From: an uncultured Mycoplasmatota bacterium
GTDB taxonomy: Bacteria; Bacillota_I; Bacilli_A; RF39; UBA660
Length of the DNA: 55,631 bases
Direction of reading: 5' to 3'
Assembly: GCA_946494015.1 (NCBI GenBank)
Contig: CAMMBL010000003.1
Location: 1-55,631 of the forward strand
In this document: one piece after another, positions 16,902 to 20,579 of the stretch
Position numbering within the stretch: position 1 is the first letter of the stretch
Layout: each line of letters begins with the position of its first letter
Translations under genes and position numbers: made by a program
Notes under the pieces: model-generated
Seen by the model: the letters and a program-made list of their open reading frames with translations, nothing else
What the model was told of the DNA's origin: nothing
Database searches by the model: none

Positions 16902-18170
16902 CTACCAATCTCTATCTTGATAAGGAGTACTTTCAATACCTTCATTTTGCAATTTTTTTACAAGCTTATCTAATTTACCTTTCCACAATTTTTTAAACCA
17001 TTTAGTATTACCAAAAAGTTTAACTATTGTTGGACTAATAGTATAATATGTATGAATAAATAATCTTCCATACCACGTTTTTGCTAATTTATAATCTCTA
17101 TATCTTCTTAATGTCCAAACCTGAGGACAATCATATGATCCATAAACACAAGTAGCAACATAACATCCACCAGCATTACTATTAGATGGAGCTGGTCTAG
17201 GTGGTACTTCATAATTAGGATCAAGTTCTTTAATCTTATTATGATATTCCATAATCTTATCTATTAATTGTTCTTTATATTCTACTTTCCAAAATTTATC
17301 AGTAACCCATCCTCCCCTTTGTGAGCTATATGTATAAGATTTAGCCGCTTCAAGATCTGTTGTAATAATAATCAAATTTTTATAAATTTGAATATCATTT
17401 TCTTTATCATCATCACACAAACTAATAGCTGTTTCTAATAATAATATAGCTCCTTTTGTTTTCTCAGTATAATTTTCAAAATCATAATCATTAGGATGTC
17501 CATCTCTACCTACATAATCAGCCCTAATTTTATTATAAGCTGAAACAACAGAAACATTAATAACATCAGCTAACTCAGCATTTATATCATCCATATTAGC
17601 TTTGCATTTTATTAAAAACTTTAATGCAATTTTCTTTATTGTAAGTATTCCATTTAATATAGTATTTGCTTCTGATACACTTCCATATTTAGCATAATTC
17701 TTACAAGCAAGAGAAACTAATGCACTACATAAAGTTGTTGTTTCTTTAATCGCTTCTTTTTTCATTTCTTTAACTCTATCTTTAGGAGCACTATCAATTG
17801 CTTTTTGAAAAGCATTTACCGACTCATCAATTCTTAAATTTGCTAATGTAGATTGCCATCCAGCCGCTTTACCTTTCAATAACCAAGCATCACAATTAGT
17901 AGGTTCAATTTCAATAATTTTATTACAATAATTTTCAGCTTCTTTTTTATTATCAGCATCATAAGCATTATTTGCCATCATTAAATAATTTTTAATTTTA
18001 TCAGTATCATCAACTTTAACTTTACTTCCAGAAACATCTACTTTTCCTTCAACCATCATCTTCTTAGCTTCTTCAACAGAATATTTTGTCCCACAACTCT
18101 GACAAACAAACACATTATCCTTTTTTAATAAATCATTACTACCACACATTTCACATACAATTTTTTTCAT
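16902..18170 (-). CDS. TFIIB-type zinc ribbon + TPR + CFI-box-CTERM domain protein
   Basis: CEMCGS...CQSCGT; TPR-like EAENYCNKIIEIEPTNCDAWLLKG; C-terminal GGCYVATCVYGSYDCPQVWTLRRYRD...GRLFI.TYY.ISP. Confidence 0.8.
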   Translation of the reverse strand: MKKIVCEMCGSNDLLKKDNVFVCQSCGTKYSVEEAKKMMVEGKVDVSGSKVKVDDTDKIKNYLMMANNAYDADNKKEAENYCNKIIEIEPTNCDAWLLKGKAAGWQSTLANLRIDESVNAFQKAIDSAPKDRVKEMKKEAIKETTTLCSALVSLACKNYAKYGSVSEANTILNGILTIKKIALKFLIKCKANMDDINAELADVINVSVVSAYNKIRADYVGRDGHPNDYDFENYTEKTKGAILLLETAISLCDDDKENDIQIYKNLIIITTDLEAAKSYTYSSQRGGWVTDKFWKVEYKEQLIDKIMEYHNKIKELDPNYEVPPRPAPSNSNAGGCYVATCVYGSYDCPQVWTLRRYRDYKLAKTWYGRLFIHTYYTISPTIVKLFGNTKWFKKLWKGKLDKLVKKLQNEGIESTPYQDRDW

Positions 18171-18180
18171 TTACTCCACC

Positions 18181-18870
18181 TCATTTATTATTCTCAATAA
18201 TTACCTTTCTCTCATTAATTAATTTAATTAATTCTTTAATAGAATTAATATCTATATCTTTTTCTATCTTCTTTAATAGATTATCTATTTTAATATCTAA
18301 TTCTCTAGTAACATCATTTTCAACTGGATCCATATATTTAACAATTTCATATAAATTTGTTAAATCTTTTTTTATATCCTTATCAGTACAATTATTTAAT
18401 AATATCTCTATTCTTGTTTCTAAATCACTAACTCTTTTAGTTTTATTTACTATTTTTTCTTCTTGATTAATAATTAATTTATTACCATTTATTAAGAAAA
18501 AGAATAATACAAAACTTATAAGTACTAATATTAAATTTAAAATTACAACTATACTTGTATTAATAAAAATAAACTTAGAAAAAACTAGAAGAACAATTGT
18601 TATTATATTTAAGAAAATATAAATATATATTACTGATACATTTAATATATCTTTCTTTAAAATAGAACTTGTATTTTTACATATTACAAATAAAGATAAT
18701 ATATTAAAAATTAAATAGTATAAAAAAGTTATAATAAAACCAAGTTCATTTTGTATTTTTATAGGAATTAATAATATTATTATACTTATAATCAAAACGA
18801 TAATAATACTTGGAATCAAAAAATGCTTTTTACTCATAATTAACTTCTCTCTTTCCCACAATTTGGACAA
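18181..18870 (-). CDS. Four-TM membrane protein with cytoplasmic coiled-coil tail
   Basis: Four hydrophobic segments, then L..L.E.VKYMDPV motif; in operon with the SPFH gene. Confidence 0.7.
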   Translation of the reverse strand: MSKLWEREKLIMSKKHFLIPSIIIVLIISIIILLIPIKIQNELGFIITFLYYLIFNILSLFVICKNTSSILKKDILNVSVIYIYIFLNIITIVLLVFSKFIFINTSIVVILNLILVLISFVLFFFLINGNKLIINQEEKIVNKTKRVSDLETRIEILLNNCTDKDIKKDLTNLYEIVKYMDPVENDVTRELDIKIDNLLKKIEKDIDINSIKELIKLINERKVIIENNK

Positions 18871-19982
18871 TATTTACTATCTTTTTTAAATTTATATCCA
18901 CAAAATTTACATTTTGCTTCTACTCCTAATTTACTTCCACAATTATCACAAAATTGCTGTCCAGCTTCTAATTTATTACCACAATTATCACAATAATGTG
19001 TTTGATTATTATTAACATCATTAATCGCTGAACCAAAAGTACTATTAACAGTAGAACCAATACTTGTCATAATACCAAGCCCAATACCCGCACTACTAAA
19101 GTTTCCAGCTCCTTCATTTTGGGCAATTTTCTCAGCTACATCATACCCTCTTTCTTCTTGATATGAATATCCTTCAGTTTTCCTTTTTTCAGCTATACCT
19201 TCAGCTTCAATTATCATTTTCTTCTTTTCTGTTTCTTGATTAATAACATCTACTTTTTGTTTTAATTCAGCTTCAGCAATATCTGAATATTGTCTAAAAT
19301 ATAATTCTTTAAACTTTTCATATTGTGAATCTCCATCAGGTTTTATAATTGTCGTTATAAAAAAATGTTTTAAATCAATACCATATTCCATAAAATCTGG
19401 AATTAATAATTTTTCCATATCATTAGAAATAATCTCCAATTTTTCATCTATTTCAAATATATTAATTTTATTATCTTTAATATATTTTGAAAGATATGGT
19501 TTTAAATGAATTACAAGAAATGACTTAAAGTAACTAACTAATTTTTCTTTACTTAAATTAGTCTCAGTTCCAACTAACTTTAATAATAATTTCCTAGCAT
19601 CAGATATCGTTATAGCCATCTCACCATTAGCCCCAATACTTAAAGGAAATTTATAAGTTGGTTCAATAAATTGAAGCTTACTATCAGTCCCCCATTTAAT
19701 TGCAAGATGTTCGACTTTATTAATAAAATATATCTCGCAATGAAATTGAGACTCACCATTTGTTGGTATATTAATAAGCTTTGATAGTATAGGAAGATTA
19801 GAAGTTTCTAAAGTATATTTCCCTGCTTTAAATGAATCAAGTGCCTTCCCATCCATAAAGAAAATCGCTTCCTGTGATTCATGAACAATAAGTTGAGATC
19901 CATAGTTAAAATCTTCTTTAGGATGCTTCCATATAATTGTTTCATTATCCCCTTCATATTTAATTACATCTAAAATTTCCAT
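18840..19982 (-). CDS. SPFH/band-7 (YdjI/virion-core-like) protein with C-terminal double zinc ribbon
   Basis: GSQLIVHESQEAIFF.DGKALD.F.AG.YTL.T.NLP, F.CEIYFIN, KWGT; C-terminal CDNCG...FCDNCG...CKFCG...YCPNCG. Confidence 0.85.
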   Translation of the reverse strand: MEILDVIKYEGDNETIIWKHPKEDFNYGSQLIVHESQEAIFFMDGKALDSFKAGKYTLETSNLPILSKLINIPTNGESQFHCEIYFINKVEHLAIKWGTDSKLQFIEPTYKFPLSIGANGEMAITISDARKLLLKLVGTETNLSKEKLVSYFKSFLVIHLKPYLSKYIKDNKINIFEIDEKLEIISNDMEKLLIPDFMEYGIDLKHFFITTIIKPDGDSQYEKFKELYFRQYSDIAEAELKQKVDVINQETEKKKMIIEAEGIAEKRKTEGYSYQEERGYDVAEKIAQNEGAGNFSSAGIGLGIMTSIGSTVNSTFGSAINDVNNNQTHYCDNCGNKLEAGQQFCDNCGSKLGVEAKCKFCGYKFKKDSKYCPNCGKERS

Positions 19983-20076: not shown

Positions 20077-20113
20077 TAACTAATATTACTATAAGCCATA
20101 ATAATATTAGTTA
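20077..20113. promoter_or_regulatory. Perfect 12-bp inverted repeat between divergent SPFH and XRE genes (candidate operator)
   Basis: TAACTAATATTA (20077-20088), 13-nt spacer, TAATATTAGTTA (20102-20113). Confidence 0.45.
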
Positions 20114-20140
20114 AAATTTTATTAAAGGAGGTTAAAAGAT

Positions 20141-20579
20141 ATGAATAATATAAAAAAATTCGCTATGTTGTAGTTTTTGGGGGATATCCAATAAAATCAA
20201 TACATTTAATTGCTTATAATATATGCAATTTTAAAAGTTATCCCTCAAATTGTACAACATAGCCAAAAAATTAAGAAAAAATAAAAACATATTACAAACA
20301 AAATTAGCAATAGATCTTAATTTAACACAAGAAGCAATTAGTTCATATGAAACCGAAAGAGTTACTCCAAGTGCTGATATTTTAATAAAACTAGCTGATT
20401 ATTTTAATACTAATATTGACTATTTACTTTGTAGAACTAATTACGATTTACCCATATCTGATATTAAACCTACTAACATAAATGAAGAACAATTTCAATT
20501 ATTAACAAAAATAAATAAACTTTCAAAAATTGATATAGCAAAAGTTGAAGGATATATAGATGGATTAATTTCCAAATAA
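20141..20579 (+). pseudogene. XRE-family HTH regulator interrupted after codon 6 by a MITE
   Basis: AGGAGG RBS and ATG at 20141 (MNNIKK); removing the MITE plus one target duplication joins in frame to LRKNKNILQTKLAIDLNLTQEAISSYE (108 aa). The tracked 20250 TTG start lies inside the MITE. Confidence 0.8.
20161..20264. mobile_element. 104-bp MITE, probably IS1595-family derived
   Basis: 26-bp imperfect TIRs (CGCTATGTTGTAGTTTTTGGGGGATA and reverse complement GGCTATGTTGTACAATTTGAGGGATA); 8-bp duplication AAAAAATT at 20153-20160 and 20265-20272. Confidence 0.85.

Follow-up and report, generated by a model that had tools for sequence, protein, structure and literature searches.

Disruption of genes by bacterial MITEs is well known. 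Among these elements are the Correia elements of Neisseria and the RUP elements of Streptococcus pneumoniae, which occur in tens to hundreds of copies per genome as small, non-coding fold-back elements with terminal repeats and a target duplication, are mobilised in trans by a related insertion sequence and alter the expression of the gene that is hit or of genes nearby. Homopolymer-tract phase variation is known for regulators and surface genes of Mollicutes and other bacteria. Insertion sequences of the IS1595 family (Siguier, Gagnevin & Chandler 2009, as summarised in PMC8101967) are characterised by a single transposase gene, which encodes an N-terminal zinc-binding domain and an IS1595-type DDE domain, by short terminal repeats and by 8-bp target duplications. 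In the literature searched, no description of the mobile elements of the uncultured small-genome gut Bacilli treated here was found, and the search for IS1595-derived MITEs and MITE insertion polymorphisms yielded nothing specific to the present element.

The whole stretch of DNA analysed (55,631 nucleotides, hereafter the window) is contig C3 of an assembly of 1.23 Mb in 78 contigs, which has a G + C content of 25.9% and is about 94% complete. Related records are MAGs of uncultured Bacilli or Tenericutes from animal guts, and the sister-species protein at NCBI comes from Candidatus Onthousia excrementipullorum. In the window, direct reading of the sequence revealed a non-coding element of 104 bp (20161-20264) inside the gene of an XRE (HTH_3) regulator. 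With a probability of about 0.88, this element is a MITE, a miniature non-coding derivative of a 1.2-kb IS1595-family insertion sequence, that inserted recently and left behind an XRE allele that is likely null or strongly hypomorphic. The identity and boundaries of the element, its target duplication, the empty sites, the autonomous relatives and their transposase family are all matters of observation.

The full-length relatives found in other genomes agree with the IS1595 family in their single transposase gene with zinc-binding and DDE domains, their short repeats and their 8-bp duplications, and the window element has the same ends and the same duplication length as these relatives. It differs from the family in being transposase-less and of about one twelfth the length, and the specific 1.2-kb elements differ in coming from uncultured gut Bacilli. 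The architecture of the window element, small, non-coding and folding back, with terminal repeats and a target duplication and with presumed mobilisation in trans by a related insertion sequence, is that of the Correia and RUP elements, and an effect on the expression of the gene hit or of its neighbours would, as predicted from the sequence, be a further likeness. In contrast to these elements, only one copy per genome is present in the two genomes that carry the window-type element, and no promoter, terminator or RNA-processing function was found for the element itself. The novelty lies in the particular element, in the parent insertion sequence that uncultured gut Bacilli carry, and in the natural occurrence of filled and empty alleles of a small regulator that is widespread.

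The element begins with a left terminal inverted repeat CGCTATGTTGTAGTTTTTGGGGGATA (20161-20186, plus strand), which is identical at 26 of 26 positions to seven insertion-sequence ends of other genomes, and ends with a right terminal inverted repeat at 20239-20264 (minus strand), the reverse complement of which reads GGCTATGTTGTACAATTTGAGGGATA. The two 26-bp repeats are imperfect and match each other at 21 of 26 positions, 11 of them consecutive; compared by eye with the common insertion-sequence end type ...GAATTTGAGGGATA, the right repeat shows two differences in 26 positions. The ends, (C/G)GCTATG, fit the motif GGCnnTG, which we take to be that of the ISPna2 subgroup of IS1595. The element is flanked by an exact 8-bp target-site duplication AAAAAATT, with the left copy at 20153-20160 and the right copy at 20265-20272. 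It was recognised by direct reading and by allele alignment; empty alleles carry a single copy, and their BLAST pieces overlap by 8 bp. The boundaries, the imperfect 26-bp repeats and the exact duplication that had been claimed in the preliminary description were thus all borne out.

The insertion point lies between codons 6 and 7 of the XRE gene, where the target is an A-tract at codons 5-7. The element has no coding capacity of its own and contains only read-through fragments of the host gene; its length falls well under the limit of about 600 bp of the MITE size class. Its structure exceeds chance expectation in the folding, in the duplication and in the left end shared with insertion sequences of other genomes: folding of the DNA gave z = -5.65, with none of 200 shuffled sequences folding equally well, and an 8-mer recurs at an offset of 112 at only about 1e-4 of genome positions.

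A TATAAT within the element had been pointed out previously. The hexamer is indeed present at 20215-20220; as its background rate in this 26% G + C genome is 2.1 per kb and strand, its occurrence is at chance level and carries no weight. No -35 partner was found for it on the plus strand. A promoter inside the element was rejected as a candidate, with no promoter-like site on the plus strand, one 9/12 match on the minus strand and a regional total not above that of shuffled sequences. A native conserved regulatory hairpin or terminator was likewise discarded: relatives and conspecific strains precisely lack the element, and no terminator-like site was found.

At least 11 contigs of the same species encode the intact predicted protein (P0001); 10 of them were read, and these all come from different samples. 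As far as each of these 10 empty contigs extends, it shows the same SPFH/XRE/pheT arrangement. In the alignment they lack exactly the 104 bp and one 8-bp copy, and otherwise show at most one intergenic difference and no coding difference; in flank comparisons reaching as far as 3 kb to each side, their identity to the window is 99.7% or higher. The filled allele, which is called from a TTG codon as P0004, was found on at least 23 contigs and in 35 index blocks. Among the nine complete carrier copies that were read, the element shows 100% identity, and a tenth carrier contig, which starts within the element, is identical over the part present. The flanks of the carriers are 99.1-100% identical to the window. 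An assembly artefact is ruled out, as the ten carrier contigs showing the identical element stem from several assemblers.

An empty site was also found in the sister species (G215), which is 94% identical at the locus. In addition, the in-genome paralogue of the XRE gene and its homologues elsewhere start with M(K)NN[IL]K..[IL]R behind a Shine-Dalgarno (SD) sequence. Since the outgroups are empty and the paralogue and homologues have such intact starts, the empty state is ancestral and the insertion recent. That the insertion is recent also follows from the identity of the element in ten carriers and from the near-identical flanks in both allele classes. The locus is still polymorphic within the species. 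The recent non-autonomous insertion that had been proposed earlier is confirmed in this way by precise empty sites in other strains and in the sister species. The contrary expectation, that relatives carry the 104 bp as a conserved part of the locus, with no empty site and no related insertion-sequence ends, is contradicted by the data, as both empty sites and related ends were found.

Autonomous relatives were searched with an exact-pattern scan of one genome per species, in which the left repeat was detected in 95 stretches. These stretches comprise 102 matched ends, 83 of which are no more than 200 bp away from the end of a contig. This clustering at contig termini is the signature of a multicopy repeat that breaks short-read assemblies, and the 1.2-kb parent insertion sequence thus breaks many assemblies of these bacteria. 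Seven complete full-length elements with a length of 1206-1233 bp were recovered. Exact 8-bp duplications were found around four of them, L107, L120, L122 and L137; the four duplications are TAAAGTTT, ATTTAAAA, ATATTATA and ATTTTTTT. In total, six of nine complete elements have an exact 8-bp duplication, two of which are MITEs (L069 and L133). L139, L145 and L073 are full-length copies without matching 8-bp duplications, which could be explained by recombination between copies or by adjacent deletions.

Among the four elements with listed ORFs, a single ORF of 356-400 aa fills L122, L137 and L139, and the ORF of L107 is split in two. The 357-aa ORF of L139 matches the IS1595-family transposase model NF033547 of NCBIfam with 120.3 bits (cut-off 75) and the IS1/IS1595 N-terminal zinc-binding domain NF050000 with 49.8 bits (cut-off 28), and reaches 25 bits with Pfam PF12762 (DDE_Tnp_IS1595), just below the cut-off of 27. 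Together with the 8-bp duplications of the full-length relatives, these matches uphold the IS1595-family relationship that had been suggested from the ends and the 8-bp duplication. In three genomes of the same genus as the window (G207, G254 and G258), element ends are identical to the left repeat at 25-26 of 26 positions, and a homologous transposase is present in 14 of 53 genomes of the genus. In a family-wide DNA search, the left repeat was also found at many contig ends of one MAG (G155; CALVOU..., BRZ_II bin7). Contigs of this MAG break off 50-75 bp inside the same IS1595-family element at 12 or more of their ends (L023, L043, L046, L049-L061); here an expansion of the insertion sequence fragments the assembly, and the bin lacks the element's interior.

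In its own genome the window element is single-copy. The search for further copies and for a parent transposase, as proposed in the preliminary description, found neither in the window's own assembly: no further copy was detected by BLASTN or by a pattern search with up to six mismatches, and no related transposase by TBLASTN in this bin, which is about 94% complete and of a kind that often loses repeats. The parents are instead present in genomes of the same genus. An 11-mer at C28:2031 was rejected as a second copy, as no repeat context surrounds it and about 0.7 chance matches are expected by our own estimate. The complete circular genome OZ006970 (G260) of the same genus contains one full-length element and one MITE copy at a different site, at about 898930-899033 (L196, 1499-1612). 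This copy is identical to the window element at 99 of 104 positions, including the interior, and is flanked by the duplication TATTTATT. Its insertion point is the stop codon of a gene encoding at least 491 aa; the insertion recreates a stop there (TAA to TAG), so that the protein is unchanged.

In another MAG, a 103-bp element (L133) with the duplication AAAAAATA is 76-79% identical to the window element. In 185,579 species genomes and the window's genome, only these three elements of 103-104 bp were found. As copies are located at different sites, transposition of the 104-bp element has occurred in two lineages or more. With one copy in each of the two genomes that have the 104-bp element, the multicopy trait of classical MITE families is absent, and the window element is an IS1595-family MITE of low copy number. 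JGI metagenomes scanned for the element interior and for the two-repeat MITE pattern gave no match to either. With filled and empty alleles, the sister species as an outgroup, autonomous relatives within the genus and another copy in a different genome, the case is fully documented.

Removal of the element and of one duplication copy restores an in-frame gene, MNNIKKLRKNKNILQTK..., for a 108-aa protein, as had been predicted, and the same protein is encoded by the real empty alleles, in which the native SD and ATG open the intact gene. The joined flanks (MNNIKKLRKNKNILQ...) match Pfam HTH_3 with E = 4e-12 over residues 4-58 of the restored protein, which confirms a Cro/C1-type helix-turn-helix domain for the disrupted regulator. 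In the filled allele, the native SD AGGAGG (20126-20131) and the ATG at 20141 open an ORF of only 10 codons, MNNIKKFAML, on the plus strand (20126-20173 including the SD), which is terminated by a premature TAG at 20171-20173. For the remainder of the XRE/HTH_3 gene (20250-20579, plus strand), the only start that can be called is a TTG within the right repeat, from which a product of 109 aa would result, beginning MYNIAKKLRK... This TTG at 20250 is the sole canonical in-frame start remaining, and it has no SD. Both the truncated reading from the native start and the SD-less TTG of the ORF track agree with the original observation.

In this genome, an SD core is found near the candidate start of 70% of long ORFs, compared with 6.6% of control positions. 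In the predicted transcript fold, the repeats pair in a hairpin of -34.9 kcal/mol (z = -4.8) that includes the TTG at 20250. Translational coupling is unlikely because the TTG lies 77 nt beyond the stop of the short upstream ORF. A TTG that lacks an SD and is paired in the repeat hairpin makes loss of function likely: the MITE-bearing allele most likely is a null allele or a strong hypomorph, with the protein probably lost or strongly reduced. The gene call at TTG 20250 is an artefact of the insertion, and the locus deserves annotation as a disrupted gene. In one filled allele (L190, 1352-1681), two amino acids of the HTH region are replaced (L to V and A to G) and synonymous changes are absent, which as a single observation hints at relaxed constraint.

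Upstream of the XRE gene and divergent from it lies a cluster of three genes on the minus strand (16902-19982), which had been proposed as a possible target of the regulator. According to the family scan, the genes encode an SPFH/Band_7_1 and zinc-ribbon protein (18840-19982), a 218-aa protein without a family match (18181-18837) and a 422-aa zinc-ribbon/TPR-like protein (16902-18170), all on the minus strand; the gaps between them are only 2 and 10 nt. The cluster is intact in all alleles of this species and of the sister species. PADLOC gave no match, and the idea that the cluster is a known defence system was therefore rejected. Between the cluster and the XRE gene, a perfect 12-bp inverted repeat, TAACTAATATTA-N13-TAATATTAGTTA (20077-20113, with arms at 20077-20088 and 20102-20113), overlaps promoter-like hexamers on both strands and is a candidate operator.

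The A-tract at codons 5-6 is itself polymorphic in the XRE gene of the sister species, where it has seven or six A (L159, 1493-1520; L207-L216). The A7 allele is in frame and encodes an intact 108-aa protein (P0006, 11 contigs). The A6 allele is frameshifted to MNNIKN* and is called from an internal TTG as a 95-aa protein (P0045, 60 index blocks). This frameshift is a lesion independent of the MITE in the same A-tract. The length polymorphism, which switches the reading frame of a regulator, resembles homopolymer phase variation, whereas the window allele differs in being off by transposon insertion and not by slippage. In both species, disrupted alleles outnumber intact ones among the assemblies, where counts of assemblies and index blocks are not population frequencies. 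The natural filled/empty pair and the frameshift pair of the sister species offer a comparison for learning the targets of this widespread 108-aa regulator. In a distant XRE homologue beside TM2/BLIP genes (L217, 953-1110), the start is corrupted to ATG TAT TAA and an A-run is frameshifted, indicating a decaying copy.

The following course of events would account for the locus. A 1.2-kb IS1595-family insertion sequence circulates in this genus of uncultured low-G + C, small-genome gut Bacilli, and its transposase would recognise the 26-bp terminal repeats in trans. The element would thereby have been inserted into the target AAAAAATT in the A-tract of the XRE gene, duplicating it. Ribosomes starting at the native SD and ATG would then stop after 10 codons, and the gene body would be reachable only from the TTG in the right repeat, which lacks an SD and is predicted to be base-paired in the hairpin. 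Should the regulator's own promoter or the divergent SPFH cluster be derepressed, the loss of the regulator would be the cause.

Against a loss of function it may be held that the insertion is functionally silent or only hypomorphic and the SPFH cluster not derepressed, which we regard as rather unlikely. The TTG at 20250 is in frame, and its near-native 109-aa product would keep the whole HTH_3 domain, which begins at residue 4 of the intact protein; the paralogue at C1:60702-61013, which is 71% identical and has a partly similar upstream motif, could cover the function. The filled allele is moreover common, with 35 index blocks, and nine of the ten carrier contigs do not differ from empty alleles in their coding sequence. 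Such identity is expected anyway because the event is so recent, and the one filled allele with coding changes has solely non-synonymous ones. The missing SD in a genome that normally uses SD sequences, the pairing of the TTG in a hairpin of -35 kcal/mol and the 77 nt that separate it from the upstream stop all argue against efficient translation of the remainder, so that a null or strongly hypomorphic allele is still the preferred reading. It is a different question whether the loss was accidental, as the 5' A-tract could be a recurrent off-switch, with loss of the regulator favoured by selection or subject to phase-variable control. This would turn on the regulator's own promoter and its other targets, including the adjacent SPFH/zinc-ribbon cluster. 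In support of such a switch, which is nevertheless unlikely, the same tract was hit independently by the MITE here and by the A7-to-A6 change in the sister species, a third and more distant copy (L217) has a decayed 5' end, and the SPFH cluster is intact in every allele. The allele listings (A6 in 60 blocks and A7 on 11 contigs; the MITE in 35 blocks and the empty site on 11 contigs) point the same way, but they differ from population frequencies. The coincidence of site needs no selection, because both slippage and insertion of the element, the duplications of which are all AT-rich, are expected to concentrate at an AT-rich homopolymer such as the A7 run; in addition, homologues with 84-92% identity have different divergent neighbours.

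A switch of another kind would exist if the empty alleles were products of precise excision and not sites that were never occupied. The flanks of empty and filled alleles are almost indistinguishable, and empty sites contain exactly one 8-bp target copy, as such a reversible event would leave them. We consider this highly improbable: all outgroups and homologues examined are empty, and the ancestral empty state explains the data, which makes excision unnecessary. Precise loss of a DDE element together with one duplication copy is rare, and a transposase was not found in the window's genome.

The consequence for the divergent cluster is less certain. A region of about 90 bp upstream of the XRE gene is largely conserved in homologues that have different neighbours, which fits autoregulation and possibly control of the divergent promoter. 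Three sets of homologues with 84-92% identity (L201-L206 and L218-L221) adjoin a divergent TM2-domain gene, followed in two of the three sets (P0009 and P0051) by a BLIP-family gene; their contexts otherwise vary. The in-genome paralogue adjoins an unrelated 188-aa gene and is preceded by the partly similar motif TAACTAATATTG. A fixed XRE-SPFH partnership is ruled out by these other neighbours of homologues and paralogue; the link is therefore specific to this species pair and does not reflect a conserved regulon. It may be that the regulator moves together with its divergent partner as a small module. As the homologues adjoin a different divergent pair (TM2 with or without BLIP), the proposal that the insertion derepresses the SPFH cluster is somewhat weakened, and such derepression would now appear possible, with the odds about two to one against it. 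The surroundings of the paralogue (C1:56498-61025) contain two ORFs that by eye are serine-recombinase-like, as well as other genes typical of mobile elements.
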